Source: a virus
Taxonomy: Duplodnaviria; Caudoviricetes
DNA: 24,998 bases
IMG/VR virus record: IMGVR_UViG_3300032163_000097
Coordinates: 1-24,998 of that record
Direction: 5' to 3' (one strand)
The notes under the pieces are model-generated. The model did not search any database. It worked only from the letters and a program-made list of their open reading frames with translations, and was not told where the DNA came from. Both the position numbers and the translations under genes were made by a program. Each line of letters starts with the position of its first letter. Position 1 is the first letter of the stretch. Shown piece by piece: positions 6,654 through 24,998 of this stretch.

Positions 6654-7718
6654 ATGTCTAATATTTTAAGAGAGACCGATGCGGAGATTTCCAGCTTTAG
6701 TGGTTCCAATATAACTTCGTTTGAAGTCGGAAAGCCCGTTTATAACAAATTTTTCGACAATACTTCAGGAAAATGGGAACGTTGGTCGGGCTCGGGCGCT
6801 CCTTTTGTTCGTTTTATTCCCTCTTTAGAGGATTCTGCAACCAATAGCGTTCGTGTTGATATTGTTGCCGGGGATATAGAACTCGGAACAATAGGAATAA
6901 CTGGCTCAATTGGTCTTTCTGTTACGGGCTCGAATGTAATAAAAAATGTAGGAATTGACATTACAGGCTCAATAGGAAAATCTATCACCGGTTCCATAGG
7001 TCTTTCTATCACGGGATCGTCTACCCTTACCGTTCAAGGTTCGGTGGGAGTAACAGGATCAACCCCTCTTATAGTAGATGCTAGACAAAGTGGTAGCTGG
7101 AATATCGCAGGTGGTTCTGTAGGGATAACAGGATCGGGCATCCTAAACACCCTAGTTATAAACACGGGTTCAGTACCCGTTAAGGCTCAACTTACACATG
7201 CTACAGGTATAGCCCTTCCTCTAGATGAGGATGTGGGAATGCTTGCGATAATAGATATCGACCATTATATGATTCATAGTGGCTCGCATTTCTTTGTAAA
7301 TGATGTTAGTTCTGGAAGCGTGGGAGTACCTAAAAACTGGTTGTTTGTTTCACCAGCCACGGGAGAAGTTCACGCTTATATTCAAACTTCTAATGCCGCC
7401 GCAGGAACTTGGAGATTCTGGGAAGATATACCTGTGAGTAATAGTGGTTCTCAAGGAACCGCGTATAATAATAATAGGCAATCTGAGAAGACTGCTGGAT
7501 TAAAGGTTTATAGCAATCCTGTGACCGGTTCTGGTGGAACTTTAATTGCAGTATTCTATATGGGAACTATTACACAAGGAAACGCTAAACCGGGGGGGTT
7601 AGCCGAAAGAAACCAAGAAGTTATACTAAAGACGGGTTCTAGATACGCCCTACAATGGGAGCCGGATTCTGGAACCGTTATGTGCGCGATTAACGCCCAA
7701 TGGTATGAAGTAGCTTAA
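6654..7718 (+). CDS. putative virion fibre/decoration protein (TGS-rich beta repeats)
   Basis: Repeated (I/V)TGS(I/V)G units followed by a globular C-terminal domain; paralogous to 8075-8803. Confidence 0.6.
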   Translation: MSNILRETDAEISSFSGSNITSFEVGKPVYNKFFDNTSGKWERWSGSGAPFVRFIPSLEDSATNSVRVDIVAGDIELGTIGITGSIGLSVTGSNVIKNVGIDITGSIGKSITGSIGLSITGSSTLTVQGSVGVTGSTPLIVDARQSGSWNIAGGSVGITGSGILNTLVINTGSVPVKAQLTHATGIALPLDEDVGMLAIIDIDHYMIHSGSHFFVNDVSSGSVGVPKNWLFVSPATGEVHAYIQTSNAAAGTWRFWEDIPVSNSGSQGTAYNNNRQSEKTAGLKVYSNPVTGSGGTLIAVFYMGTITQGNAKPGGLAERNQEVILKTGSRYALQWEPDSGTVMCAINAQWYEVA

Positions 7719-7770
7719 TAAATTAACTAATGTAACAAGTATAACAAGGAGTTAAAAGAGATTGGCATCC

Positions 7771-7795
7771 GGAAATAACTAAGAATATATAGAAG
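7771..7795 (+). repeat. 25-bp direct repeat, copy 1 (GGAAATAACTAAGAATATATAGAAG)
   Basis: 24/25 identical to 7973-7997; related copy at 9475-9500. Confidence 0.85.
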
Positions 7796-7805
7796 GTATA
7801 GCCTT

Positions 7806-7994
7806 TTGCCTAAACACATTTTCCCAAACGATGAGTCCGCCCACCTCGTGGAGTTCGCCAAGGGTTGGAACCCGAGGACGGTTCTTGAGGTGGGTTGCGG
7901 CGAGGGGCGGGAGTTGATGCTCATAGAGCCTCACGTGGGGAGGGTCTATGGTGTTGACCTAGCCTATTTTTTGGAAATTACTAAGAATATATAG
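7806..7994 (+). pseudogene. class I SAM-dependent methyltransferase fragment
   Basis: VLEVGCGEG (motif I) and VYGVD; truncated where it runs into repeat copy 2; no clear RBS. Confidence 0.65.
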
Positions 7995-7997
7995 AAG
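7973..7997 (+). repeat. 25-bp direct repeat, copy 2 (GGAAATTACTAAGAATATATAGAAG)
   Basis: One mismatch to 7771-7795. Confidence 0.85.
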
Positions 7998-8074
7998 AGG
8001 GATATGGTTCAAAGTTAGTTTTCGGATACGAAAATGGAGGTTAAGTGAATGGTTAATAAAAGGAGGAGTGAAAT

Positions 8075-8803
8075 TTGTCGCTAGGACCGACGGTCGAAAC
8101 GAGTGTCGTGAAGGCACCAGCATACGATCTCGCAGGAGATGTACTGAAGGTTAAGCTCAGTGGCTCCTATGTAGACCAACCAACTACTATAAAAATCCAT
8201 AGTGGCTCTGGATACACCGATGTCGGGTACTCAGGGAGCGATCTTTCAATTCCGGTGACGGTGATCGCTGGGGATATTGAGTTTGGAACGATAGCTATCA
8301 CGGGTTCAACCGTGACCTTCCCAGTGACGGGTTCCGTGGACGCTAGACAATCTGGTTCTTGGAACGTGGACGCACGCCAGAGTGGTTCATGGGGGGTTGG
8401 TGTAACTGAAGATATAGGGAAGTCTATCACAGGCTCTATAGCACTAACCGTTTCCAATCTCAGAGTTACGGGCTCCTTAACGACCACGCTTTATTCCGCG
8501 TTTAACTTTGCTTTAGGCGCTACGGGCTCAACGGGAAGTGGGAACTTTAATGTCACCCAATATTCGGGCAAGAGCGCCTACGCTTTTATTGGCACCACCC
8601 AGAACGCCTCGGGATCGCTGATAGTCTCGGGTTCCTTTGATGGGGGAACAAATTATTTCCAGTTCAGAAGCGGAAGCTTCGGGTCGGGGAGCCTGCAATG
8701 GTTCACATTCTTCGATGGTGTGACCCATATCTCCGTGAACCTTTTCAACCAAGTCACGGGTTCCGCGGTTTCTGGGAGTCTCTACTTAGTGGCACAGGCG
8801 TAG
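8075..8803 (+). CDS. putative virion fibre/decoration protein, paralog of 6654-7718
   Basis: Shares AGDIExGTIxITGS, DARQSGSW and IGKSITGSI with 6654; AGGAGG RBS before a TTG start. Confidence 0.6.
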   Translation: MSLGPTVETSVVKAPAYDLAGDVLKVKLSGSYVDQPTTIKIHSGSGYTDVGYSGSDLSIPVTVIAGDIEFGTIAITGSTVTFPVTGSVDARQSGSWNVDARQSGSWGVGVTEDIGKSITGSIALTVSNLRVTGSLTTTLYSAFNFALGATGSTGSGNFNVTQYSGKSAYAFIGTTQNASGSLIVSGSFDGGTNYFQFRSGSFGSGSLQWFTFFDGVTHISVNLFNQVTGSAVSGSLYLVAQA

Positions 8804-9702: not shown

Positions 9703-10716
9703 ATGGAGAAGGGATGTAACTATGGTCCGGGGCTTTGTAGAAAATGCGGTAAAGATCATGGTATACATCCTTGCTTAGGTAAACCGGGGCACCATCATTC
9801 TGAAGAAACTAAGAAAAAAATAAGTGATACTAAAAAGGGAAATAAAAATCCGATGTTTGGGCATACATATGGTGATATTCCTTGTATTAAATGTGGAAAG
9901 ATTCATACTCCCAATAGGGGAATGTTAGGAAGACGCCACACGGAAGAAACTAAAATAAAAATGAGTGAAAATCATAAAGGGTCGTTAGGAAAACATTGGT
10001 TTCATACAGAAGAATGGAAAAGGGATATGAGCAATAAATTAAAGGGTAGGCATCTTTCTGATGAACAAAAGGAACAAATATCGATTGTTCATACAGGTCT
10101 TCATCCATCTGAAGAGACTAGGGTGAGAATGAGTGAAGGAATGAAAGGAAAAAATAAAGGTAAAAAACGCACGCCGGAACAGATTGAACTATTTAGTAAA
10201 GTTCGTAAGGAGGAGTGGGAAAATCTTACTCCCGAAGAAAGAATGAAACGAGGAGCTATATCAAAGGAAGTTCAGAATAGACCCGATGTTAAAGCCAAAA
10301 AAAGCGAAAAACTTAAAAAGTCTTGGATAAACGGAGATTTTGATGAAGCAAATATGGGTGCGCGTGGAGTTGGAGGAAAACGATCCGATCTTAATGACCA
10401 GTTTTTCCGTTCTACTTGGGAAGCAAATTTGGCGAGAATTATGAACTATCATAAGATAAAGTGGGAATACGAACCTAAACGCTTTGATTTTGGAGAATTT
10501 AGTTATTGCCCCGATTTCTACCTACCCGAAACTGATTCTTGGGTTGAGGTGTACGGTTATCTAGATGAAGATAAAGCGAAAAAACTTTGGGCTATCTCCA
10601 AGTTAGTGAATATTCAAATTGTAAATGAAACCATCTATGACCAACTTAAAAGTGAGTTCAAGGACAAACTACCTTTCTGGGAGAATGGGAGAAAAAAGGT
10701 GAGTAATGATAAATGA
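9703..10716 (+). CDS. free-standing putative homing endonuclease (NUMOD3 repeats plus PD-(D/E)xK nuclease)
   Basis: HSEETKKKIS and HTEETKIKMS repeats; FRSTWEANLA...WEYEP...YCPDFYLP...VEVYG; AT-rich relative to flanks. Confidence 0.8.
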   Translation: MEKGCNYGPGLCRKCGKDHGIHPCLGKPGHHHSEETKKKISDTKKGNKNPMFGHTYGDIPCIKCGKIHTPNRGMLGRRHTEETKIKMSENHKGSLGKHWFHTEEWKRDMSNKLKGRHLSDEQKEQISIVHTGLHPSEETRVRMSEGMKGKNKGKKRTPEQIELFSKVRKEEWENLTPEERMKRGAISKEVQNRPDVKAKKSEKLKKSWINGDFDEANMGARGVGGKRSDLNDQFFRSTWEANLARIMNYHKIKWEYEPKRFDFGEFSYCPDFYLPETDSWVEVYGYLDEDKAKKLWAISKLVNIQIVNETIYDQLKSEFKDKLPFWENGRKKVSNDK

Positions 10717-11501
10717 GCACCGAAATCTTGTCTCCAGTCGATCAGCCATCGCTTTTATACCCCGCGTTGTATGGGGTGAAGCCTCGGCGGAAGGATTATC
10801 GGTGCAAAAGATGCGGCTCCGACAACCAGACGTGCCTCAGGGCTGAGACGAAATACTTCAGGGGGGGGAATCTCGAAGATGTTTTCTTCGACTTCGAGTG
10901 CGGATGCGGGAACGCTTTCTTCGTCGCCGCGAAGCTGCTGGTGAACGAGGTTCTGGAGGAGCAGATGGAGAGAATCTTCAACTTCACCAAGGTGACGGGC
11001 AAGGAGTTCGGGGCGCTGGTGATCAGGACCGTGGACGGGGATATCATTCTGGATATGTTCCAGATTGGGGAGAACCGCGAGGTGGAGATGGTTCCGACCC
11101 ACGAGATGAGGGAGGGGGAGGAGATTCTTGGAACCATGCATGTCCACCCCCAGTCACCAACATTTTCCTTATACGATCTGGCAACTATGATTCGCGACAA
11201 GAGATGGGAAAAGATAAGCATGGTGGCGGGGGCGGACGGGAGTTTCAACGTCGCCATACCCACCTCGAAGACGCCTAAAATGGAGGATATAGGCGCGTGG
11301 CTCAAAGAGAACGAGAATATGAAAGACGAGGACGGGAATGTAGACGCGGTGGGGTTAGCCAACAAGTATAACTTTCTGTTATACCGAGGGAAGGCGGATA
11401 ACCTGAAGTTGATTTCGGCGGATGATATTAAGACGTATACCTTGGAGGACTTGTTTAGGCGGGTCTCCGGGGTTAAGAATATAAAGGAGAGTAAGAAGTG
11501 A
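10713..11501 (+). CDS. JAB/MPN (JAMM-motif) metalloprotein with a Zn ribbon and an MCP-like N-terminal peptide
   Basis: KEFGA plus HVHPQSPTFSLYD (HxH-x7-S-x2-D-like); CKRC and CGC. Confidence 0.75.
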   Translation: MSTEILSPVDQPSLLYPALYGVKPRRKDYRCKRCGSDNQTCLRAETKYFRGGNLEDVFFDFECGCGNAFFVAAKLLVNEVLEEQMERIFNFTKVTGKEFGALVIRTVDGDIILDMFQIGENREVEMVPTHEMREGEEILGTMHVHPQSPTFSLYDLATMIRDKRWEKISMVAGADGSFNVAIPTSKTPKMEDIGAWLKENENMKDEDGNVDAVGLANKYNFLLYRGKADNLKLISADDIKTYTLEDLFRRVSGVKNIKESKK

Positions 11502-11590: not shown

Positions 11591-11866
11591 ATGAGTGTTC
11601 CAGATGCAGTGTATCCGCTCAGGACATTCCCAGAGATAATCACGACAAGCTTGACGGCGACCAACGTGACGGGTAGCTCTATAGTTTCGGGCTCTTCCGT
11701 CTATGGCGCTTACGCCAAAATAACTACCGTCAGCGGAAGCACAATATCCGCCGCGGGTGGATCGTTCATCCCGCCGACGGGCTCGGCCTCGGGTTCTCTC
11801 GTCGCCAGCCTGACCATGGCGGTGAACATAACGGGAAGCACGTATTACGTCCAGTTATTTGCTTAG
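11591..11866 (+). CDS. small Ser/Thr-rich virion (fibre/spike-like) protein
   Basis: GGAGG RBS in an A-rich leader; beta-rich; six [ST]GS motifs; ends YYVQLFA. Confidence 0.55.
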   Translation: MSVPDAVYPLRTFPEIITTSLTATNVTGSSIVSGSSVYGAYAKITTVSGSTISAAGGSFIPPTGSASGSLVASLTMAVNITGSTYYVQLFA

Positions 11867-12137: not shown

Positions 12138-13166
12138 GTGCCGTGGGAGGAAAATCCTGAAACTATTCGCAGCGGGCATGGGGAGATAGGCAGATTCGAT
12201 CCGAAATCCTTCAGAACCATAGATATCACCGAAGGAATCAAAGCTGTGATAGGTTGCCCCAAGGGAAACTTCGTGAACGGTAAATGCAAGGTGGGTACAG
12301 AGGTTCAGAGCTACATTTTTTCGAAGCCGAAGTTCACCATGAAAACTGCAAAGGCATGGTTCAAAGAGCACGAGGGCGCTAAGAAGGAGGAAGAGGAAAT
12401 GGACGAGAAACTTTCTTGGATTCAGGAGATAGAGCGCGCTTTCAGGGCTATGGATGATAAGGAGAGGTTTGTTGCAATTTCTACTTGGACAGAAGAGCAA
12501 CTTACAGAAAAGATCGCCGAACTTCAAAAACAACTCGATAGTTTATGGACGAAACCGCCTGAACCTGAGGATATAGAAAAAGAGAAAAAAAGAGCACGTC
12601 TTTCCGCGGAAATAGAAGCCTATAAACAAGCTTTAGCTGAACTTATTAAAAAGAAGGTTCAGGGAGAAAATATTAAAACTTCTAATTGGAAGGCGTCCTT
12701 TAACTACTCCGCGGGAACCATGATAGCCGAACTTTTGCCCGATTTCGAGACGCCGAATAAAAACGGCTTCTTCTTGGATAAATCTCTAAAGGAGAAAATA
12801 ATTGCGAAACTCAATTCGGGAAAGGTTTTTCTTACAGATTCCCACGGTAGAACATTAAGAGATATTTTAGGAAAAGTTACAAAGGGGTTCGAGCGGGGCG
12901 GGAAAATAAAAATTGAGGCTGATCTTGACCCAGATATTGATCCCAAAATCGATAAAATTCTTACGAAATATAAGGACAACTTAGGGGTCTCTTTAGAAGG
13001 TCCGGGCGCGGGATATTGTACGATTTGCGGTCAACGGGTTCACGGAATGGAGAGATGCTTCAAACATCCGAAGGCTCCAATTGTCGTGAAGGAGTTTGAC
13101 TTGAGAAAAGTCGCTCTTACGGACGATCCCGCGTGGGAGACGAGTAGGGTAGAGGATTATGTCTGA
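12138..13166 (+). CDS. prohead (maturation) protease with N-terminal accessory domains
   Basis: PNKNGFF...DSHG...LGKV...GVSLEG...CTICG...VALTDDPA match HK97-type protease motifs (putative His and Ser); directly before the scaffold. Confidence 0.8.
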   Translation: MPWEENPETIRSGHGEIGRFDPKSFRTIDITEGIKAVIGCPKGNFVNGKCKVGTEVQSYIFSKPKFTMKTAKAWFKEHEGAKKEEEEMDEKLSWIQEIERAFRAMDDKERFVAISTWTEEQLTEKIAELQKQLDSLWTKPPEPEDIEKEKKRARLSAEIEAYKQALAELIKKKVQGENIKTSNWKASFNYSAGTMIAELLPDFETPNKNGFFLDKSLKEKIIAKLNSGKVFLTDSHGRTLRDILGKVTKGFERGGKIKIEADLDPDIDPKIDKILTKYKDNLGVSLEGPGAGYCTICGQRVHGMERCFKHPKAPIVVKEFDLRKVALTDDPAWETSRVEDYV

Positions 13167-14404: not shown

Positions 14405-14431
14405 AAAAGGGGGGCTAATAACGCCCCTTTT
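14405..14431 (+). promoter_or_regulatory. intergenic hairpin upstream of the MCP gene
   Basis: AAAAGGGGGGC-TAATAAC-GCCCCTTTT imperfect inverted repeat, followed by an A-rich leader and AGGAGG RBS. Confidence 0.45.
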
Positions 14432-14463
14432 AAAAAATAAAAAAATAAAAGGAGGAAAATGAA

Positions 14464-15558
14464 ATGTCTTTATCTAGAGAAATTCTTAGTCCAGTAACTA
14501 CAGCCGGCTTGCTATACGAGAGGGATGAACAGTCTTCTCGGGCAAAATCCCGCGCTGCACACACTCGTAAGCCAAATCGCCATGCCGAACATGGTGGCGA
14601 GAGAGTAAGTAGTTCAAACCTTTTGAGCTATTATTCCGCCAGACAATTTCTGCAAAACTACAGTCTGACCGCCAGTAACTCAATAACCTTCCCGAAGCAG
14701 TCAGGATCGCCAGCGGCGGTCGTGAACCAAGTCGCGGAGGGCGCTGAGTTCCCGATGGATGTCACCGCGTACAGTGCTGTAAACGTCGTTCCTTACAAGG
14801 TCGCGCATGGTTTTATAATCACGCGTGAGACTATTGAGGACAGCCTCATTCCTATCCAACAGGATCAGCTTGCTCGTGCCGCTCTGCGTGTCGCGAACAA
14901 GGTTGACAAGGATTGCATCAGTGTAATCAACACGGGTAGGAGTGGCTCGACGGCGGCAACAGGAAAATCGCTTGCGCTGAATGGCACTGAGTTCGTCTTG
15001 AGTGGCTCTGGAGGCTTGGGTATCGGCATGTATACTCCTAAAAGGAGTAGTGTAAACGATATCATAGCCGCGAAGAGCCTTGTGGAGAACAACAACTATA
15101 TGCCTGATAGAGAAAGTAGTAATAAAATATTATTTCTCCGGGAAACGTTGTTAGTTCACCCACGAGCGAAGGTGTTCATAGAGAGGCTTCCGCACTTCAC
15201 GGCTCAGTATTCGTACGGAGAGCCGAGAATGCAGACGGGCTTCATAGCGACGCCGGGTAAGTTTGGTGATATCTTGGGACTAGATGCTTATGCTTCGACT
15301 AACTGCCCAACGGGCTCCGCATTCGTGCTGAGCAGGGGCAGAACCACGAACATCCTCGGCCAGTATAAAGGAGTCGGGTAACTCTAACTTCTTGCTGAAA
15401 GTCCGTTAGGATTCTTCGTGGAAAGAAGGCCCATCACCACAGCGATAAAGCCGCTCGAAGAGAGGGATAGCATCGGCATCTATGTGTCTATGAGGTACGC
15501 ACCAACTGTAATACGCGGCGAGGCCGCGTGCGAGATCACTGGTATCAATGTGAGCTAA
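14464..15558 (+). CDS. HK97-fold major capsid protein split into 6 exons: join(14464..14515,14547..14601,14643..15031,15056..15108,15145..15366,15400..15558), 309 aa
   Basis: Spliced product MSLSREILSPVTTAGLLYPALHTLVSQIAMPNMVARQFLQNYSLTASNSITFPKQ...VAEGAEFP...YKVAHGFIITRETIEDS...GIGMYDIIAAKSLVENNNYMPDTLLVHP...GDILGLDAYAST...GQYSPLGFFVERRPITT...DSIGIYVSMRYAPTVIRGEAACEITGINVS. Exons total 930 nt. Confidence 0.92.
14516..14546 (+). other. BHB intron 1 of MCP (31 nt, frameshifting)
   Basis: Central helix UGCU(14510-13)/GGCA(14541-44); bulges AU^A and AA^A; intron stem CGAGAGGG/UCUUCUCG; ligation gives CTA TAT CCC (L-Y-P). Outer helix imperfect. Confidence 0.88.
14602..14642 (+). other. BHB intron 2 of MCP (41 nt, frameshifting)
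   Basis: Central helix GGCG(14596-99)/CGCC(14637-40); bulges AG^A and AG^A; stems GAGUAA/UUAUUC and UAGUUCAAA/UUUGAGCUA; ligation gives GCG AGA CAA (A-R-Q). Outer helix weak. Confidence 0.9.
15032..15055 (+). other. BHB intron 3 of MCP (24 nt, in-frame)
   Basis: Outer helix UAUCG/CGAUA; central GCAU(15026-29)/GUGU(15050-53); bulges GU^A and AA^A; stem UACUCCU/AGGAGUA; ligation gives ATG TAC GAT (M-Y-D). Confidence 0.88.
15109..15144 (+). other. BHB intron 4 of MCP (36 nt, in-frame)
   Basis: Outer AUG/CGU; central CCUG(15103-06)/CGGG(15139-42); bulges AU^A and AA^A; stems GAGAAA/UUUCUC and UAGUA/UAUUA; ligation gives CCT GAT ACG (P-D-T-L-L-V-H-P). Confidence 0.9.
15367..15399 (+). other. BHB intron 5 of MCP (33 nt, contains an in-frame TAA)
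   Basis: Outer GGC/GUC; central CAGU(15361-64)/GCUG(15394-97); bulges AU^A and AA^A; stem AAGGAGU/ACUUCUU; ligation gives CAG TAT AGT CCG (Q-Y-S-P). Confidence 0.92.
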
Positions 15559-15572
15559 TCGCACCAAATATC

Positions 15573-15604
15573 GTAGGGGTTCGCCCCTACATCCCATTTT
15601 TTTT
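15573..15604 (+). terminator. hairpin plus T-tract after the MCP
   Basis: GTAGGGG-TTCG-CCCCTAC perfect 7-bp stem, then T8 at 15597-15604, just after the spliced-MCP stop (15558). Confidence 0.7.
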
Positions 15605-15691: not shown

Positions 15692-16135
15692 ATGCCTTAC
15701 ACAACAGTTCAAGACACAGTAAATTGGTTGGGCGGGACGATTACGGGGAGCACCTGCTATTTTTGGGAACTTACGATACCTTCCGGGAGCGTGCAGGATC
15801 ACATCGTTTATGGTGAGCATTACCTTCACAACATCCTCGGAGACACCCGATGGAATGCGACAACCGACTACACTTCCGGAAGTCTCCGGCAACTCATCAG
15901 AAATTACGTATCCTTCAGAGTTCTAGTGGTTCTCACGGGGGGCATCATCACGGAGGGATTCCTTTATCGCACGGGGATGCCTATAGAGCGTCCACAACTC
16001 CTATCCACGCTCACCTCCATGATAGAGTCCTTCAAATCCGCTTCCGAGGGGGAGCTGATGAAGCTTCAGGACATCATAGTTTATGCTGAAGCGGATCAGC
16101 CCGCCTACGGCAAGACCGCACCGCCTGTTATGTGA
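15692..16135 (+). CDS. putative head-tail adaptor
   Basis: MPYTTVQD start typical of gp6/gp15-like adaptors; first gene after the MCP; size fits. Confidence 0.65.
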   Translation: MPYTTVQDTVNWLGGTITGSTCYFWELTIPSGSVQDHIVYGEHYLHNILGDTRWNATTDYTSGSLRQLIRNYVSFRVLVVLTGGIITEGFLYRTGMPIERPQLLSTLTSMIESFKSASEGELMKLQDIIVYAEADQPAYGKTAPPVM

Positions 16136-16145
16136 GGGAGAGCAA

Positions 16146-16646
16146 ATGGTTTCCACCGATCCCGTTATCAAGACCCTGAGTCTCCTAAGCTCTAGCTGGA
16201 GTCTCACGGGCAACCTAACGGGCTCCAACCTAAAATTCGGAACATACTGGCTCCGCGGTCCGCCCGACGTGATCCGGGATAACCGCTATTGGGTTGTCGT
16301 AAAGTGCTTCAACCCTAGAAGCACGCTTTTAACGACCGGGGCGCAACCTCTTTACCGCCACGACGAACTCCTGACCGTTGGGGTCTATGTACGGGTTGAC
16401 AGCGATAGAAACGCCACCACCTTGGGGCAGGGGAAGGCGGATATCTACAACATGCAAAAGGAGGTCGAAAGGGTTCTCTTCTCGGGAAGCAGGATCGCAA
16501 CGGGGAGCGCGGATGGTTCGAGCGGCAGGGAAGATTTCTTAATAGTGGGGAATTGGCGCGAAATGGATGAGACGAACTGGCTCCCTATTCTGTACAGGAG
16601 GGAGCTAGAGGTAAATTATTGTTATCACGAGAGTGGTTCAACATGA
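16146..16646 (+). CDS. putative tail terminator/neck protein
   Basis: Position, size and beta-rich pattern (LTVGVYVRV...EVERVL...YRRELEVNY); start reassigned to ATG 16146 after a GAGGGAG RBS. Confidence 0.55.
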   Translation: MVSTDPVIKTLSLLSSSWSLTGNLTGSNLKFGTYWLRGPPDVIRDNRYWVVVKCFNPRSTLLTTGAQPLYRHDELLTVGVYVRVDSDRNATTLGQGKADIYNMQKEVERVLFSGSRIATGSADGSSGREDFLIVGNWREMDETNWLPILYRRELEVNYCYHESGST

Positions 16647-16969
16647 TAGAAACGAAGGAACTCATCGAGGATTTCCTAGAGGAGAACTGGGAGAAAATCA
16701 GAAAGACCTATCCCAACGTGATAAACGTGGGGGTCGGCAACAAACGCATTAATGGGGCGGAGACGGACCAGCCCTGTATAGTTTTCTACGTCTCCCAAAA
16801 AAAGCCTCTAGCTGTGCTTAAACCCGAGCACCAGATTCCAAAGGTATTGGACGAGGTGCGAACAGATGTCGTGGAGTTGAGCGCGAAAGACTATGTAATG
16901 GGCGAGACGGAGCCCAGCAAACTGCCTCATAGGGTTCAAAAGAGGCTAGCGGGAGGGGTCAAGCGGTGA
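16643..16969 (+). CDS. stand-alone protease prodomain-like protein (Nal1 N-terminal-like)
   Basis: PNVINVGVGNK..NG.ETDQPCIVFYVSQKKP...L.PEHQIP..LD.VRTDVVE; ATGA overlap at 16643. Confidence 0.6.
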   Translation: MIETKELIEDFLEENWEKIRKTYPNVINVGVGNKRINGAETDQPCIVFYVSQKKPLAVLKPEHQIPKVLDEVRTDVVELSAKDYVMGETEPSKLPHRVQKRLAGGVKR

Positions 16970-17766
16970 GCGTTGATTTGCGCCCCCTTTGCAGCCCTAT
17001 TCGGAATCAGGGGCAATGCGGAAGTTGCACCGCCTTTGGCACCGTTGGGGCATGGGAGGAAATTCTGCGCAAACTCACTCCCGGGGATGACACGGACCTT
17101 TCGGAGAAACATCTATTTTTTTGTAGTGGCGGAAAATGTAGTGAAGGGAATACTCCAGATGCCGTTCTCAACCAAGCCACGAAAGGTGTCTGCATCGAAA
17201 GTTGTTTACCCTATGGAATAACAAGCTCAGGCATCGACTCGAAATGCGCGAGCGGGATTTGCGACAACTGGTGGGAGAAGGGGAAAAAGTTAGCCTCTTG
17301 GAAATCTGTTAAGGACGTAAATGAGATGAAGAATATTCTCCAGCAGGGGCACGCCCTAGCCACCACGATGGCAGTTCACCAAAGCTTCATGAACTTTTGC
17401 GCGGGGGTTTATCATAGCCTCGGGGCCAGCGATCCCATTGTGGGATACCACATGATCAGTTGTGTTGGTTTTAGCGATGGTCTGGGGGCGTGGTTGATAA
17501 GGAACAGCTGGGGCACAGGCTGGGGCGAATCTGGGTACGTTTGGATAAAATACGGGGATAGCGAAATAGACTCGGAGATGTACCAACTCATCCCCGATGG
17601 CGAAATTCCCCCTCAACCGGGCCCAACGCCCTCGCCGTGTTCGGTTGGAAATGGAGTCGCGGTGATCATGAATTTCTTTCCGTGGATTTTGGGGAGGAAG
17701 GGAAGATTTTATTATATGAATTTCAACAAAGTGAGTAATTGTAAAAAAGGAGGAAAACGAACATGA
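16966..17766 (+). CDS. papain-family (C1A) cysteine peptidase
   Basis: SVDLR...PIRNQGQCGSCTAF (Gln, Cys), GYHMISCVGF (His), WLIRNSWGTGWGESGY (Asn). Confidence 0.92.
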   Translation: MSVDLRPLCSPIRNQGQCGSCTAFGTVGAWEEILRKLTPGDDTDLSEKHLFFCSGGKCSEGNTPDAVLNQATKGVCIESCLPYGITSSGIDSKCASGICDNWWEKGKKLASWKSVKDVNEMKNILQQGHALATTMAVHQSFMNFCAGVYHSLGASDPIVGYHMISCVGFSDGLGAWLIRNSWGTGWGESGYVWIKYGDSEIDSEMYQLIPDGEIPPQPGPTPSPCSVGNGVAVIMNFFPWILGRKGRFYYMNFNKVSNCKKGGKRT

Positions 17767-18218
17767 CCGTGTACGCGGGCTGGCAATTAGCAGTTCTGAT
17801 GGCTACGGGGAGCGCGACGGGAAGTTTCTATAGCCCCTCAACGGGCATAGTTACCCTCGATGGGATTCAATCGCTATCTTACGACTATGTAAACAGGATA
17901 GAGGCAAAAGAGGAGACGGGAAAAAGGACACCCAGCGCCTTCGTTGAAGGTACTACGGGTATAACTGGAACCCTCGAAAGGTTCTGGACTGGAAGCGGCG
18001 TCCAAGCTCTAGGGTTCGATAAAAGCACTACGGGTTCGGCATTACCTAGCCGTTCTCTGATGGTTTGTCCCAACGGCTTCAACGTCTCGGGAAATCCCTA
18101 TCTCGTCATCGCCGATCTGAAGTGGGACTCCCAGAGAGTGACCCATAGACCCGGCTCAAATCTCATGACCGAGAGCCTAGGCTTTATTGCCACCTATGAG
18201 TATAGTGGAAGTTTCTGA
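17763..18218 (+). CDS. tail tube (major tail) protein
   Basis: IQSLSYDY...EETGKRTP...EG..GITGTLERFW pattern; precedes the chaperone and tape measure; no sheath gene seen. Confidence 0.7.
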   Translation: MTVYAGWQLAVLMATGSATGSFYSPSTGIVTLDGIQSLSYDYVNRIEAKEETGKRTPSAFVEGTTGITGTLERFWTGSGVQALGFDKSTTGSALPSRSLMVCPNGFNVSGNPYLVIADLKWDSQRVTHRPGSNLMTESLGFIATYEYSGSF

Positions 18219-19532: not shown

Positions 19533-21758
19533 ATGTCCGTAAACATCCCTAAAGTGTATTTGGAGATAACGGCGGATGATGGAACGTATGCTCTAACGAG
19601 CGAAGTCAACTCGGTAAAGATCACGAAGCCTGTCACCGCCGCCATAGGGGATTTCCAGATTAGGGTTCCTCACGGCTCGGGCTCGATTTTCACCCGCTAC
19701 CACGATGCCAACGTTTTCAAGAATGTCGATATCTGGTTAGGCACGGGAGTTACGGGAAGCTCCAAGATATTCTCAGGAAAAATAGATAGTTTCAAATCCG
19801 AGTTTGACCCAAAAGCTGGATACTTAATAACCTTCACGGGGCGCGATCTGGGCGAGGCTCTTTTCAGGCATCAAGTCACGAAAGATTATTTTGGCTACAC
19901 CTCGCTCTATCCCTCGCCTCGAAGGGGAACCACATCGGGCGGTTACGATGTCTACTGTCTAGAATCCTACACGGGTTCCGTGACCAATACTGCCACGCTC
20001 GTAACGGTGGGCACCGCCGTGGCTGATAGCCTCTTTCGCGTTAAACCCTACGCGACGATCAATGCCTCCTTCGGCACGAGTCTGCCGGGATTTTTCGGCA
20101 CGGGTTCCGTGACGACCGTGCCCTTCACGGCCACCGGTTCGGATTACGAGGTTCATCTTAAATTTATCAACGCCTCAGCCTTCGCCCATAGCGGGAAAAT
20201 GTATGCTCAACTATACGTAGTTGACGATACGGGTTCGATGACCAACCCAGTCGCCCTCTCCAGTTGGTATGGAGGAACTACCATAGATTTTCCCTCCACC
20301 GAAAATTTTGTTGTCGATGATACGATTAGCATCAACCTTCCATATTTCGCGGTCGAGAATAAGTACATCTACCTTCAAATGGTCTGGAAAGTCACGACCG
20401 CTGGAGCCGACGCCACTGCGGGGCTTAAGGTAGAATATGCCCAAAATAGCTTCTTGAATATCCCCAACGATACGGGTCTCGCGACGAATGTAGTCGTGGA
20501 TATCTTATCCGGTTCGGGAATTAACACGGGCTCAAATTTTCCGTGGAACGATACTCCCATCACCCAATCTTACAACAAAAAGAAGGCGTTCGATGCCATC
20601 AGGGAAATAGATGATATCGTCAATTGGGATTCCATTGTTGACGTGACGGGGTCGTTGCAGGCTTGGACTAGGAGAACCCATACCAACAACGGGCTTCTGC
20701 AAACGGGTTCAAATATCCTCAAATTCTCACATATGAAGGATGTTGATGCCGTCGCCAATAATATAAGAGTCTATGGAGCACAGGAGTCGAAGATTCCATC
20801 GGACGGAGATTATTGGACGGAGTATCTTTCGGGTAGTGAAGAGGGTTGGTCGCTAGTTAGCGGAAGTTTAACTGAAGGGAAAAGCGTGGCGGCTTTACCC
20901 GCTAGAATTGGATCGAAATACTTGAGTGGAAGTACCGATGATGCTGTCTCCAAATGGCTCATCTTCCGGCACGTAATTTCTCCATCCCTCGATCTTAGTA
21001 ACAATGAAACCGCAAAATTACTTTTCTATACAGCGGGGGGTACGATTTGGTCAGATGCCGCCTCGATTCATCAAGTGCGGCTCAAAAGAAGCGGATCAGA
21101 CGAAAAAAATTACTTCTATGCCCAATTGAAAGCTCTCACCGGAGATACGACTTGGACGGAAAACTCTTATGACCTTGGGAATAAGAATGTTACAGGTTCT
21201 GTTCAACCGGGGGACTGGGTTAAAGAAGGAAACATGAACTGGGCAGATGTCAATTACATCGAGTTCTATCTCTGGTATACTGGGGTCACCGCTGGACCGA
21301 CCTTTTATGTCGATGGTCTCTATTTCGGACCCACACGATGGAGCGGGTCCGCTATAAACGCGACCAGCACGGGGTCATATGGTAATAGACCCTATATCGA
21401 GGAGTCTGATTACTTCCACAGTAACGACGAATGCCAATCTCGGGCGGACTACCTTCTCGCTAGGATGAAAGACCCGCCGAACCAGTACCAGATACTGACC
21501 ACGGGAAGTGAGGGCATTAATCCCGGCGATAGGATATACTTGCTTCTGCCCTCCGAGGGAGTGAGTTCCCAGACATATTATGATATCATAGAGCTTACGC
21601 ATACCTTTACGGCTCCTGATGGGTTCGTAACGGAATTGATGTTAAGCGACGCGGAGAAAATCCGCGACGTGACGCTCCTGAAGAGTTACGGGGTTCTGAG
21701 ATCGTACGGAAAAAAGGATGTGGATGACGCATTGAGAGGAAATAGAATTTATTATTAG
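19533..21758 (+). CDS. baseplate hub/Tal-like protein with inserted beta-sandwich domains
   Basis: IFSGKID...ITFTGRDLGEAL at the N-terminus, VANNIRVYG centrally, INPGDRI...IIELTHTF...FVTEL.LS at the C-terminus. Confidence 0.7.
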   Translation: MSVNIPKVYLEITADDGTYALTSEVNSVKITKPVTAAIGDFQIRVPHGSGSIFTRYHDANVFKNVDIWLGTGVTGSSKIFSGKIDSFKSEFDPKAGYLITFTGRDLGEALFRHQVTKDYFGYTSLYPSPRRGTTSGGYDVYCLESYTGSVTNTATLVTVGTAVADSLFRVKPYATINASFGTSLPGFFGTGSVTTVPFTATGSDYEVHLKFINASAFAHSGKMYAQLYVVDDTGSMTNPVALSSWYGGTTIDFPSTENFVVDDTISINLPYFAVENKYIYLQMVWKVTTAGADATAGLKVEYAQNSFLNIPNDTGLATNVVVDILSGSGINTGSNFPWNDTPITQSYNKKKAFDAIREIDDIVNWDSIVDVTGSLQAWTRRTHTNNGLLQTGSNILKFSHMKDVDAVANNIRVYGAQESKIPSDGDYWTEYLSGSEEGWSLVSGSLTEGKSVAALPARIGSKYLSGSTDDAVSKWLIFRHVISPSLDLSNNETAKLLFYTAGGTIWSDAASIHQVRLKRSGSDEKNYFYAQLKALTGDTTWTENSYDLGNKNVTGSVQPGDWVKEGNMNWADVNYIEFYLWYTGVTAGPTFYVDGLYFGPTRWSGSAINATSTGSYGNRPYIEESDYFHSNDECQSRADYLLARMKDPPNQYQILTTGSEGINPGDRIYLLLPSEGVSSQTYYDIIELTHTFTAPDGFVTELMLSDAEKIRDVTLLKSYGVLRSYGKKDVDDALRGNRIYY

Positions 21759-21770
21759 GAGGAGAGATGG

Positions 21771-22139
21771 ATGGGCGCAAGTTTGATTAACGCTTCGGGT
21801 TCTAGTATTCCAAACCTAGTCATAAATGAGATCAAGGAAACTAAAGTCACGAGAAACGTCATCCTCGACGTTCCCGCCGCAGATCGAGACATCGTGCAAT
21901 CTATGGGAAACAAAAACCGGCGCTATGCCATAGACGGTTGGGCAATACAGACTGGCTCGAACAACCTCCCCCTCCAGACGGCTAGGACCGATCTGCAGAA
22001 CCTCGTGGGGAGAACCGGAAGCATTTCATCCGATATTATTTCGCAACTCCAAGTTCTCTTCCTTAATGTTGATATCGACGATAAGGGCGGGAGACCCCTA
22101 GAGTTCAAGTTTAAGATTGACGCGGTTGAAGTGATTTAA
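21771..22139 (+). CDS. distal tail (Dit)/baseplate-like protein
   Basis: LDVPAADRDIVQSMGNKNRRYAIDG...FKFKIDAVE tube-fold-like pattern. Confidence 0.55.
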   Translation: MGASLINASGSSIPNLVINEIKETKVTRNVILDVPAADRDIVQSMGNKNRRYAIDGWAIQTGSNNLPLQTARTDLQNLVGRTGSISSDIISQLQVLFLNVDIDDKGGRPLEFKFKIDAVEVI

Positions 22140-22140
22140 G

Positions 22141-22689
22141 GTGTCCGAAGCCCCCGACCTCACGGTTACAAATGAGTCCTTAACCATCACGGATGAGAGT
22201 TTTTACAGCAACATAACGGTCGATACCAGCGGGAGTTTGTATATTCAAGCCCACGTGAAAGCCAAGAAACTTACCGTTACTGGCTCGGCTTCTCTGGTCG
22301 AAGTCTCCGGTTCGGGATATCTAGAAATCACCGTTTTCGGTACGGGAATTTTTGACGAACTTGGAAACGCTTTCATCAGCGGCTCGATTGTAACAAGGGT
22401 CTTAGAAATTTTCGAGGGAAGGGGGGTTATACGACCTAGAGTTGAAACGAGTGATTATCTCCAATACTTGGGGGCAAAAAATAGAGCGTTCCGCGTTGAA
22501 ATGATCGCCACGGGGAGCGACCTGTCGATACCACGAAATATGATTTTAAGCGTATCTGGAAAAAAGGGATACTTAACGACCGCGGTTATTCCGCTAACAT
22601 ATGTCATCTTTTTGAATCCAGAGGTCGTAATGAGCGGAGATAGACCTATGGAGATAAAGGGGGCTATAACCGCTATAGAATTTAAGTAG
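22141..22689 (+). CDS. paralog of 21771-22139 with an N-terminal beta-repeat extension
   Basis: QYLGAKNR, VIFLN and GDRPMEIK align with QSMGNKNR, VLFLN and GGRPLEFK. Confidence 0.55.
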   Translation: MSEAPDLTVTNESLTITDESFYSNITVDTSGSLYIQAHVKAKKLTVTGSASLVEVSGSGYLEITVFGTGIFDELGNAFISGSIVTRVLEIFEGRGVIRPRVETSDYLQYLGAKNRAFRVEMIATGSDLSIPRNMILSVSGKKGYLTTAVIPLTYVIFLNPEVVMSGDRPMEIKGAITAIEFK

Positions 22690-22703
22690 GTGGTGGATAC
22701 TGT

Positions 22704-24287
22704 ATGAATTTCCTAAAGAAAATAATTAGAAGATGGGTGCTATCTCTCCTATCCGAGGGCATTAAAGTGGGAGAGAATACCGTCTACGTTTACCCTACCT
22801 ACATAGATGTCGGCGGGGGGAGCCTGAGAGCGGTCGGAGATGTCTCAGGCAGTTTAATCCCCACATACACCAACACCTATGATATGGGCTCCACGGATAA
22901 GTATTGGAAAGATGCATTCATCTCCGGTTCAATTCACGGAACACCGGGGGTTACGATCCCGGGGAGTTACCTGACTACCGGTTCGATAGAGGCAGGAAAA
23001 TTAGCGGCGGGAGCGGTTCAGACCGCGAATATAGCTAACCTAGCAATCACCGAAGCTCTCATAGCTGCTGGCGCGATCACTGAAGTGAAAATCAATACTG
23101 GTTCAATTACTGAAGCTAAATTAGCCGCTAACGCGGTCACTGAAACAAAAATTGCCAATGGTTCAATCAGCACCCCTAAGATAGTTGCGGGAGCGATCCA
23201 AGCCGGTCAGATCGCAGCGGGAGCCGTGACCACAGAGAAAATAGATGCCTTAGCCGTAAACGCCGATAAGATCGCGGCTAATGCTGTAACTACAGCTAAG
23301 ATAGATGCGCTGGCTGTAAATGCGGCGAAGATTGCGGCGGGCGCAGTATCCGCCCAGAAGCTTGCTATCGTGGATTGGTATCCCGTTGGGTTGACTTGGA
23401 CGGATAATAGCCCCTCGGCGGGGTACGTGGCTTGGTCCGCCTGTACTATGTATTACAACGGTAATAGCTATTCCGTCGCTGGGGGTAACACGAACCTACA
23501 GTATATTTGGTGGGATTTCACCTATCCCACCGCCTTCCAAACCTCCGCCACGAAGCCGACCCTTACCGGTGAGGATGCTATGGTCGCGGTGAATAGGGCG
23601 GGAACCCACCATCAGATTCTTCAGGCTACGTTGATTGATGGTGGCTCTATACTCACGGCTAGTATTTACGCGGATGAAATAGGGGCAGGGGCAATCACTT
23701 CCGCTAAAATTTCGTCCGATCAGATTTTTGGTAAAGACTTCCGCACCGCGGAAAATGTTGGGGAGGTGAGCGGATCCGCGGGAGTAAGATTTGATTCCAG
23801 TGGCATCAGAGGCTATTTAGGGGGAACAACAAAAACCTTCAAGTTGAGTTCAACAGATGGTGTTATCACCGTATTAGGAAATGGTGTGTTTAAACTTGCT
23901 AAAGCAGACGAAACTTTGATTGGTTGGCTTGATTATTCAAGTTATGATAGTATCGATTCTCTTGCATTAAGAGCCAATGCAGCGCGTTTGGTATTAGATG
24001 CAAATGGTGATCCAATATATATTGACCAAGGTGGAAACATTACTTTCAGTGATAACTTTGTTGCGCTTAGACCAGCCACTGATTTAGGCGTTGATTTAGG
24101 AACACCTTCTGCATCCTTTAGATACTTTGTGCCAACAACAGCTTCCGCTAGTCGTCCTGCCGCGTCGGCGAATGTGCATGGTCTTCTATGGATAAATACG
24201 GCGGCAGGCGCAAAAGACACGGCTTGGATTTGCCTGAAAAACGATGCTGATGGATATGAGTGGGTTCAGGTGGCGATAAGCACGTGA
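22704..24287 (+). CDS. tail fibre protein
   Basis: About 13 tandem 10-aa repeats (A(I/V)TxxK(I/L)AAx); P..T..YD.GS...W fibre motif. Confidence 0.8.
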   Translation: MNFLKKIIRRWVLSLLSEGIKVGENTVYVYPTYIDVGGGSLRAVGDVSGSLIPTYTNTYDMGSTDKYWKDAFISGSIHGTPGVTIPGSYLTTGSIEAGKLAAGAVQTANIANLAITEALIAAGAITEVKINTGSITEAKLAANAVTETKIANGSISTPKIVAGAIQAGQIAAGAVTTEKIDALAVNADKIAANAVTTAKIDALAVNAAKIAAGAVSAQKLAIVDWYPVGLTWTDNSPSAGYVAWSACTMYYNGNSYSVAGGNTNLQYIWWDFTYPTAFQTSATKPTLTGEDAMVAVNRAGTHHQILQATLIDGGSILTASIYADEIGAGAITSAKISSDQIFGKDFRTAENVGEVSGSAGVRFDSSGIRGYLGGTTKTFKLSSTDGVITVLGNGVFKLAKADETLIGWLDYSSYDSIDSLALRANAARLVLDANGDPIYIDQGGNITFSDNFVALRPATDLGVDLGTPSASFRYFVPTTASASRPAASANVHGLLWINTAAGAKDTAWICLKNDADGYEWVQVAIST

Positions 24288-24998
24288 CTAAAAAAGAGGA
24301 GATATTCAATAAATTCCTTAAGGAGTATCTTTCTCTAGGAATTGCTAGCGTCGCTGCACAAAAACTCGCGGAGGAGATGACCGGACGGGCGATTAATGAA
24401 CTCCGCGTTCTTGTTCTCGATCCTATATCGGGCGGACCGACTTCGTGGAACTGGCAGGATATTGTACCCAACGTTGATACAATACCGAATGGCGGACCCG
24501 CTTCTTGGGCGTGGACTCTCTTCTCTGGAAGTCTTACTACTCCCATCGGTGATCCTTTGGGATGGGATTGGGGGCAGATTTCTGGGACACATTCCGATAT
24601 AGCCCACGCAGATAGTGGGCATAGCGATATCCATTCAGATATATTGCATTCGGATGCTGGGCATTCCGACAGTCACTCTGATATCTCACATTCAGATGCA
24701 ACCCACTCTAATATAGTTTACTCTGACTCACATTCAGATGCAACCCACTCTAATATAGTTCATTCCGATACGTTACATTCCGACGCGGGACCAGATGTTC
24801 ATAGCAATACCCATAGTGATGTATTACATTCCGACGCCGGTCCTGATATACATAGCGATGTCGCTCACACGGAGCACGCGGAGGGCACGCATCAAGATGT
24901 TCCACACTCGGATATAACCCATTCTAATATTTCTCACGCAGATATCCATTCTGATATTTATCACTCTAATATAGCTCATTCTGATGCTGCTCATTCGG
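24284..24998 (+). CDS. His-Ser-Asp repeat protein (partial, runs off the window); not in the ORF track
   Basis: GTG overlaps the fibre stop; frame open to the end: MTKKEEIFNKFLKEYLSLG...GQISGT-HSDIA-HADSG-HSDI-HSDIL-HSDAG-HSDS... Confidence 0.85.
   Translation, partial: MTKKEEIFNKFLKEYLSLGIASVAAQKLAEEMTGRAINELRVLVLDPISGGPTSWNWQDIVPNVDTIPNGGPASWAWTLFSGSLTTPIGDPLGWDWGQISGTHSDIAHADSGHSDIHSDILHSDAGHSDSHSDISHSDATHSNIVYSDSHSDATHSNIVHSDTLHSDAGPDVHSNTHSDVLHSDAGPDIHSDVAHTEHAEGTHQDVPHSDITHSNISHADIHSDIYHSNIAHSDAAHS
24685..24760 (+). repeat. 34-bp exact direct repeat (42-nt period) in the HSD array
   Basis: CTCACATTCAGATGCAACCCACTCTAATATAGTT at 24685-24718 and 24727-24760. Confidence 0.9.

Follow-up and report, generated by a model that had tools for sequence, protein, structure and literature searches.

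Why would the major capsid gene of a tailed virus be broken in five places, and how could such a gene still yield a capsid? The window analysed here, a stretch of 24,998 nucleotides, is the head-tail module of an uncultured, likely archaeal tailed virus. It runs from a portal gene (1656-3665) through Mu F-like and neck genes to a likely protease gene (12138-13166), then through acidic scaffold-like and decoration-like genes to the capsid gene, with tail genes downstream. The capsid gene occupies six exons on the plus strand (14464..14515, 14547..14601, 14643..15031, 15056..15108, 15145..15366 and 15400..15558, the last including the stop codon). A Shine-Dalgarno-like AGGAGG stands at 14450..14455 (+), 8 nt upstream of the start codon, and recurs in the near-identical virus L018; a terminator-like hairpin, identified by eye from the sequence, follows at 15573..15604 (+), with a 7-bp stem, a TTCG loop and then a T run. 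Family match, fold and position after the protease and scaffold genes all identify the product as an HK97-fold major capsid protein: even the unspliced frame, 305 codons long with a stop at 15381, matches PF25209 (E 4e-6) and four PHROG major head families, and a structure model of an intron-less homolog, of low confidence (pLDDT 54) and used for fold class only, matches HK97-type capsids (E 6e-8). The best matches among phage records are staphylococcal capsids at 26% identity, and the protein clusters of 10 capsid homologs carry no attached names.

The original prediction held that five inserts of 31, 41, 24, 36 and 33 nt, each with its own pair of bulge triplets, split this gene, and that cutting them out restores one frame of 309 residues. 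A geometric scan located all five at the predicted places with the predicted triplets, and the restored frame, ending at 15558, was confirmed. All lie on the plus strand: intron 1 (14516-14546; 31 nt, 3n+1) after coding nucleotide 52, intron 2 (14602-14642; 41 nt, 3n+2, with a stop in the exon frame) after nucleotide 107, intron 3 (15032-15055; 24 nt, in frame) after nucleotide 496, intron 4 (15109-15144; 36 nt, in frame) after nucleotide 549, and intron 5 (15367-15399; 33 nt, with an in-frame TAA) after nucleotide 771. When all 32 splice states were enumerated, the 309-residue protein came from the fully spliced state only, and retention of intron 5, in whatever combination, costs the capsid protein its final 52 residues. 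All inserts but intron 1 are richer in A and T than the exons (0.28-0.52 vs 0.53). An intein reading was rejected: introns 1 and 2 shift the frame, and intron 5 holds a stop.

Homology marks the inserts independently of their RNA structure. A homolog search returned 88 other proteins, 48 of which are full-length homologs and were compared with both translations, as the original prediction had proposed. The spliced protein aligned with zero gaps to 30 of the 48, the best of them 89% identical, whereas the unspliced protein showed at least 44 gap positions against every one of the 48. A spliced aligner working from protein only, and hence blind to RNA structure, set inserts 1, 3, 4 and 5 exactly on the cuts expected for bulge-helix-bulge (BHB) motifs; it placed insert 2 6 nt upstream of its BHB cut, where the same residues are encoded, so that this placement is ambiguous but compatible. 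At the placements that the protein allows, a strict BHB is expected by chance at 0.002-0.014 per insert.

In all five inserts the upstream exon and the intron 3' end form a central helix with four of four pairs, G-U allowed, and all five have a flanking helix on the intron side. The exon-side helix beside the 3' bulge can be closed only in inserts 3, 4 and 5 (7, 3 and 3 bp). Because no exon-side helix closes at introns 1 and 2, these are relaxed HBh' motifs, and the assertion that each insert carries two 3-nt bulges therefore stands strictly for inserts 3-5 but not for the relaxed inserts 1 and 2. Intron 3 has the full hBHBh' form, with 7-bp helices on both sides and two G-U pairs in its central helix. 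Over the ensemble of the whole pre-mRNA, the probability of the central helix is 0.9-1.0 for introns 1, 4 and 5 and 0.2-0.35 for introns 2 and 3; the exon-side helix is well populated in intron 3 only, that of intron 4 not being populated. Each intron with its flanks folds better than its shuffles (z -1.6 to -5.5). Relaxed HBh' forms are cleaved by the (alpha-beta)2 and epsilon2 types of EndA, according to the available text of PMC5829648. The BHB motif alone is unspecific, since a loose scan of the window yields 40 candidates on the plus strand and 18 on the minus strand, and it is homology that singles out the five inserts. Other BHB-like candidates within the capsid gene (for example 15513-15534) were rejected as introns, homologs retaining them. 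The remaining window genes with homologs (portal, JAB-domain, protease, decoration, tube and others) aligned without such breaks, which leaves the capsid gene as the sole member of this set in which introns were seen. Two free-standing nuclease ORFs of the window were considered as BHB-intron-borne and discarded, no convincing long-range BHB being found around them.

Might the gene instead be decayed or mis-assembled, and not expressed as capsid at all? The window is a single assembled contig, and among the listed pieces of its likely source run none spans the whole gene. Yet the exons are intact and 89% identical to an intron-less homolog, the spliced gene differs from that of L018 by 8 residues against 73 bases, and the same inserts appear in other contigs and runs. 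Assembly error, a danger that the original prediction had itself raised, was checked directly: inserts 3 and 4 are identical in L018, a separate contig, and DNA contigs of other runs span the inserts, those of X2 covering introns 3-4 and 5 gap-free and those of X4 covering introns 3-4. No RNA data set figures among the 16 runs listed. In further DNA contigs, from X3, X5, X8 and X9, individual introns are missing, the net differences being 31, 41, 36 and 33 nt: intron 1 is absent in X3 and X9 contigs, intron 2 in one X9 contig, intron 4 in X3 and X8 contigs, and intron 5 in L018 and in X3 and X5 contigs. The five capsid-gene inserts are real, and a dead or mis-assembled gene strikes us as close to inconceivable.

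The wider capsid family carries similar inserts. The comparison drew on three viral and 49 metagenome loci, among them L005, which is the window itself and not independent; L052 and L072 were not alignable and were left out. Fifteen control inserts (14 in-frame pieces of 18 or 21 nt and one spurious gap of 1576 nt) were set aside, and after these exclusions the protein-only alignment left 45 candidate introns, 34 of which break the frame or hold a stop. When a strict BHB test was applied at the placements that the protein allows, 26 of the 45, window included, passed it where 0.24 would be expected; without the window, 21 of 40 passed, against an expected 0.22. The other 19 of the 45 failed the strict test at protein-optimal placements. 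Two of the 15 control inserts also passed, so this control is not fully clean; a second one was, consisting of eight in-frame indels (12-30 nt) in capsids of a neighbouring clade, which form at most three central pairs. The in-frame inserts of 18 and 21 nt, found in seven loci, were rejected as introns, their synonymous variation indicating a protein insertion, and an insertion in the portal gene of L001 reads as an intein rather than a BHB intron.

Adjustment by hand afterwards shifted six boundaries by 1-5 nt and split one insert in two, giving a catalogue of 46 introns of 24-880 nt at 17 sites in 16 loci. Four central pairs form in 44 of the 46, a figure partly selected by the hand adjustment, and the exon-side helix is closable in 31. 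Central pairs are formed in 98% of cases over 31 distinct combinations, compared with 45% when shuffled, the boundaries being partly motif-chosen; where alleles are compared within a site, two-sided changes occur at six central positions. Among the 88 returned capsid homologs, 39 are truncated or nuclease-fused; some of these are contig ends, and many start or end at intron sites. Gene callers evidently miss spliced capsid genes, many of whose homologs appear in this truncated or fused form.

We consider it highly probable, on sequence grounds, that the inserts are introns of homing origin spliced by the host enzymes EndA and RtcB. In the proposed mechanism the intron 3' end would pair with four exon bases, EndA would cut both bulges behind their second base, and RtcB, whose role as a ligase is described in the available part of PMC12135372, would join the exons; native capsid protein would require the removal of all five introns. 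The virus thus likely needs host RNA splicing for its capsid. The central proposal of the original prediction, that EndA-type introns reside in a viral capsid mRNA, gains support from the gap-free homology, the coincidence of cut sites, the compensatory pair changes and the finding that five of five tested genomes hosting a neighbouring virus clade encode both EndA and RtcB.

Removal from the RNA could in principle follow another route, by self-splicing or by a virus-encoded nuclease and ligase instead of host EndA and RtcB; two of the motifs are relaxed, and the window is a 25-kb fragment. We judge this very improbable. No Rfam family matched at gathering scores in the window plus 9 loci, and group I and II introns were rejected, no ribozyme core being found in these sequences and 24-41 nt being too short for such ribozymes. 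EndA was found in neither of two incomplete relatives of about 100 kb, G001 and G002 (0/2), and the geometry of the inserts is that given for EndA substrates in the available text of PMC5829648. A further alternative is that the ribosome skips the inserts, by translational bypassing or frameshifting, or that they are excised from the DNA. Known bypass sites contain hairpins and in-frame stops, and matching codons do flank intron 2. However, matching take-off and landing codons occur in only one of the five window inserts and 4 of 46 overall, the junction repeats of 0-3 nt mean that there is no target duplication, and both forms of the alternative leave the pairing of exon with intron, and its compensatory changes, unexplained; we give it hardly any credence. 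Even taken jointly, other removal routes and a dead gene are improbable.

Which host would supply EndA and RtcB? The relative G002 is 106 kb long, and its capsid shows 73% identity with the family query; for three of its products, the small subunit of RFC, a polymerase of family B and a nuclease of the Hef/XPF kind, the best matches are archaeal families and structures, a PriL match being weak. An archaeal host is likely. The window's own capsid clade was searched for in the genome collection and not found, and a portal search of viral contigs returned nothing. For a neighbouring capsid clade (38-41% identity) there were 14 hits, every one of them in a Bathyarchaeia genome; they comprise 13 capsid genes, four of them with stop-holding BHB introns, and one CRISPR array. 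Among 401 Bathyarchaeia genomes, further BHB introns were found in 5 of the 11 loci examined. The genomes that host this clade encode EndA and RtcB in five of five cases, four of them with two EndA-family genes. For the one EndA catalytic (alpha) subunit examined, four entries are the nearest matches, and the alignment with them extends through its N-terminal lysine-rich loop; we take these four to be crenarchaeal enzymes and the loop to be their specificity loop. In a quick tree the window's clade (support 99) stands separate from the proviral capsid clade of Bathyarchaeia, which are perhaps the host of the window's virus as well, a lead drawn from the neighbouring clade only. None of the 70 spacers of the Bathyarchaeia array L072 match the window, and one of them matches the neighbouring clade at 27/29 nt. 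Comparison of the window DNA with the 401 Bathyarchaeia genomes gave no spacer-like match; there were short hits, and none of the seven checked lies in a repeat array. A 27/28-nt match of intron 5 in L126 was dismissed as chance: the hit falls where the sequence appears to code for protein and where neither a tRNA nor an Rfam family matches, at an E of 0.003 per genome over 401.

Where did the introns come from? Ten inserts of the family are 597-880 nt long. Eight of them match the Vsr, DUF559 or MTES_1575 families of nucleases, several of these having zinc fingers as well, and the other two comprise one LAGLIDADG and one weak NERD match; nine of the ten reach E 7e-5 or better, and the tenth is weak. 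Nuclease-bearing alleles exist in relatives at all five window sites. DNA evidence places them at site 1 (L021, 610 nt, 3n+1), site 2 (L018, L038 and L047) and site 5 (a 608-nt LAGLIDADG allele in L030, with a 33-nt allele in L028), and protein evidence only at site 3 (a nuclease fusion in protein P0070) and site 4 (nuclease insertions in proteins P0060 and P0074). At site 3 the same 24 nt occur in L018, and L030 has an allele of 51 nt. The window inserts themselves, at 24-41 nt, have no nuclease ORF inside.

The closest comparison is with L018, which is about 98-100% identical to the window in its scaffold (97.6%), tube (98.7%) and two more proteins. The first 15 and last 14 nt of the window's 41-nt intron 2 are identical to those of the 790-nt nuclease intron of L018, and because the short intron shares both ends with the long one, the micro-introns probably arose by deletion from homing nuclease introns. 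A second short/long pair, from L021 and L028, has 6 and 23 nt in common at its ends; the other 17 short-long comparisons have only 0-5 bases in common at each end, so that most pairs are more distant. Deletion of the nuclease gene is a likelier direction than invasion of a pre-existing hairpin. In contigs of X4, X5 and X9, a long unlike sequence gives way to the second half of intron 1, and in one X5 contig the match to intron 5 breaks off after 15 bases and is followed by what resembles the start of a LAGLIDADG gene; each of these is a loose end of only 30 letters. L018 and the window have three of the five sites in common; two are missing from L018, which has three others in addition. Their 73 exon differences cluster, with 56 in 300 nt near the discordant sites compared with 17 in the other 630. 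These blocks of divergence could be homing conversion tracts but also fit ordinary recombination; they come from one pair and are not independent of each other.

The spread that we propose would begin with a long allele encoding a Vsr/DUF559-like or LAGLIDADG nuclease, by which a co-infecting virus would be cut at its unoccupied site; repair would copy the intron into the cut site, and later deletion of the nuclease gene would leave a hairpin of 24-76 nt obliged to keep its splice motif. As part of the same proposal, most of the nucleases, being start-less, would be translated from mRNA not yet fully spliced by ribosomes that begin at the capsid start codon, and some would need a retained upstream 3n+1 micro-intron to come into frame. 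Among the roles first suggested for the inserts, that of selfish introns is the one for which there is evidence, in the nuclease alleles at all five sites, the shared ends and the patchy presence.

The other suggested roles would have real introns kept for the benefit of the virus, either as a gate tying capsid synthesis to host splicing or as a shield that breaks up the sequences recognised by homing nucleases or CRISPR spacers. A homing nuclease would find its site blocked by whatever insert occupied it, the capsid gene was alone in showing introns when the window genes with homologs were compared, and in relatives retained and spliced RNA would yield nuclease and capsid respectively. We nevertheless hold a benefit of this sort to be unlikely: no site is fixed, many relatives are intron-free and near-identical viruses differ, and codon conservation is higher at the insertion sites than at random ones (0.84 vs 0.79, p 0.003), as expected of homing elements. 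The window is also without a spacer match in the L072 array and the 401 Bathyarchaeia genomes, which leaves escape from CRISPR unsupported.

If the introns are homing elements, how would their nucleases be made? Nine of the ten nuclease frames are open at the intron 5' end and readable from the host gene's start codon. Nucleases fused in frame to an upstream exon are known from organelle group I introns, and four of the nine continue the exon frame; the other five are shifted. In all five shifted cases the capsid start codon reaches the nuclease frame only if an upstream 3n+1 micro-intron is retained (31, 40, 76, 31 and 31 nt). One of the shifted nucleases is without any ATG, and in others no ATG precedes the zinc finger, the first lying within or beyond it. 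At all five of these loci the shifted frame runs through the intervening exon without a stop; in loci without 5' introns, a shifted-frame stop occurs in 11 of 18 over the three longer segments and in 1 of 18 over the short one, and such a stop is also present in L021, which at 94% identity to L028 lacks the nuclease of the latter. At one site, L028 and L051 have homologous nucleases (46% identical): that of L028, with an upstream intron of 76 nt, is shifted, and that of L051, with one of 36 nt, is in frame. The pattern is confined to five related loci at three sites, and against it three other start-less nucleases need their upstream introns removed. The +1 shift at site 1 may be an inheritance from a long ancestor (610 nt, 3n+1).

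The window itself appears to preserve a trace of this arrangement. Retention of intron 1 shifts reading into the frame of the relatives' intron-2 nuclease, and the window keeps the 31-nt intron, an exon 2 that is open in the shifted frame, and a remaining stump of the nuclease intron at site 2; a micro-intron/nuclease pair of this sort likely survives as a relic in introns 1 and 2. Translation of the nucleases from intron circles was considered and rejected, three of the five shifted cases having no start codon upstream across the circle junction. Separately, several nuclease frames extend beyond the intron 3' end, and for this reason linear and circular RNA would give different nuclease tails.

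We tentatively put forward, as a possibility that falls somewhat short of an even chance, that the splicing state of one mRNA decides its product, unspliced RNA giving nuclease and fully spliced RNA giving capsid. Homing BHB introns would accumulate at many sites, decay and cooperate, all on the host's tRNA-splicing enzymes, with a retained frameshifting micro-intron acting as the start switch for a neighbour's start-less nuclease.

An intron in the cbf5 pre-mRNA of Crenarchaeota was reportedly described by Watanabe in 2002. This intron is 16-44 nt long, often has a relaxed BHB, and is cut by hetero-oligomeric EndA between bulge bases 2 and 3, according to the available text of Yokobori 2009 (PMC2738675). 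The capsid introns are likewise short inserts (24-41 nt) in a protein-coding frame. Unlike them, cbf5 is a cellular gene with one intron at one site and, in the portion of that literature at hand, no known nuclease allele, whereas here five introns lie in a viral gene, with 17 sites and long alleles across the family. The same text (PMC2738675) raises the idea that cbf5 introns are deletion derivatives of nuclease introns and says that proof would need a long allele; long and short alleles at the same sites of the capsid gene supply the link that it asks for.

Nuclease-bearing BHB introns sit in archaeal rRNA and tRNA genes, as set out in accessible sections of PMC6125680 and PMC8598171. The rRNA introns resemble ours in their BHB ends, a nuclease ORF in the loop, patchy presence and short deletion derivatives (PMC2738675, PMC6125680 and PMC8598171, in the sections available). 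They differ in three respects: the host gene here is a translated viral mRNA; the nucleases are mostly Vsr/DUF559-like with zinc fingers, by 8 to 1 of 10, rather than LAGLIDADG; and 9 of 10 nuclease frames are open at the 5' end and so readable from the host gene's start. In the Haloferax gene HVO_1309, a BHB intron occupies the 5' UTR, and the available text of Schwarz 2020 (PMC7714728) names cbf5 as the sole other mRNA case. There too an mRNA is the EndA substrate, as is predicted here, but the HVO_1309 intron is outside the reading frame, single and cellular, and the capsid introns are none of these.

Protein genes of an archaeal virus have been noted before to contain short inserts, putative and apparently unspliced introns of 12 bp (Peng et al., as cited in the available text of PMC2738675); those are in frame and possibly need no splicing, whereas 34 of 45 inserts here break the frame or hold a stop, and the ends are BHB. 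Nuclease-driven intervening sequences in conserved viral genes are also known from phages, as group I and II introns and inteins (PMC11878797 and PMC12350094, in the parts available); they splice themselves, while the capsid inserts, without a ribozyme or intein core, would need a protein enzyme of the host. A literature search covering few subscription journals found no report of BHB introns in a viral protein gene, and the available text of PMC13149111 and PMC12397907 mentions no viral case. The kind of element, the archaeal BHB intron, is known; what is new here is its occurrence in a viral mRNA, the presence of five in one gene and of 17 sites in the family, and long and short alleles side by side.

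Only two archaeal mRNAs, cbf5 and one with an intron in its 5' UTR, had been named as EndA substrates in the literature consulted. The capsid gene offers a compact test system, with a 1.1-kb RNA, two enzymes and five introns. If our reading is right, enzyme-spliced mRNA introns would be common in one prokaryotic lineage, and capsid synthesis in these viruses would depend on the enzymes by which the host matures its tRNAs. If the splicing state of the mRNA also decides between nuclease and capsid, a prokaryotic virus would practise alternative splicing by intron retention, and its capsid mRNA would house an intron economy resembling that of eukaryotes.

Introns of 26-68 nt with bulge-helix-bulge (BHB) geometry, the predicted substrate of the archaeal splicing endonuclease EndA, occupy one common site in capsid genes found in Bathyarchaeia genomes, where a neighbouring capsid clade resides. 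The loci carrying them are L064, L068, L069, L070, L083, L085, L088, L105 and L108 (in genome G003), some of which may be the same record twice; the L108 capsid gene holds two introns, 22 nt apart. A Bathyarchaeia CRISPR array of 71 repeats (L072, 2781-7422) includes one spacer that matches capsid genes of this clade, with 27 of 29 nt agreeing with locus L063.

Among the long, nuclease-bearing introns of the relatives, four (L013 5403-5999, L047 169-930, L028 2259-2897 and L051 403-1209) have a length divisible by three and a nuclease frame without a stop, so that, judged from sequence, the excised circle would form an endless reading frame. Where might such nucleases come from? The window encodes two free-standing ORFs of the NUMOD3 plus PD-(D/E)xK type (509-1663 and 9703-10716), which are a possible source pool; the intron nucleases of the relatives show weak similarity (25-32%) to the ORF at 509-1663. 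By eye, the portal gene of a relative (L001, 2665-3717) shows an intein-like insertion, in frame, that includes a LAGLIDADG-like domain. Finally, seven loci (L022, L026, L027, L029, L031, L035 and L043) share a 13-residue insertion at capsid residues ~238-241, the last 21 nt of which partly resemble a BHB intron, with two of the seven passing the test for strict BHB geometry at protein-allowed placements. This insertion is possibly an old intron that was absorbed into the protein.

Several other features of the window deserve mention. The likely virion proteins encoded at 6654-8803, 11591-11866, 15692-16646, 17763-18218 and 19533-24287 are rich in the tripeptide Ser/Thr-Gly-Ser (16 in 354 aa, 17 in 242 aa and 18 in 741 aa); among the window proteins counted, none occurred in the portal, protease, scaffold or nuclease ORFs. 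The 106-kb relative G002 carries many glycosyltransferase genes. Inserted among the tail genes is a papain-like C1 peptidase with a small protease-associated gene (16619-17766), a region sharing an identical 27-nt stretch with peptidase genes of two Bathyarchaeia genomes, and an ORF with His-Ser-Asp-rich repeats of about ten residues each (24260-24998) continues past the window end. Between the decoration-like and capsid genes, a G/C hairpin precedes a T run and an A-rich stretch (14405-14434), which suggests that the capsid gene may have a separate transcript. The head module includes a JAB-domain protein (10713-11501), kept in that module in at least 12 related loci, and together with a ThiF/E1-like gene in G002 this protein hints at a ubiquitin-like system.
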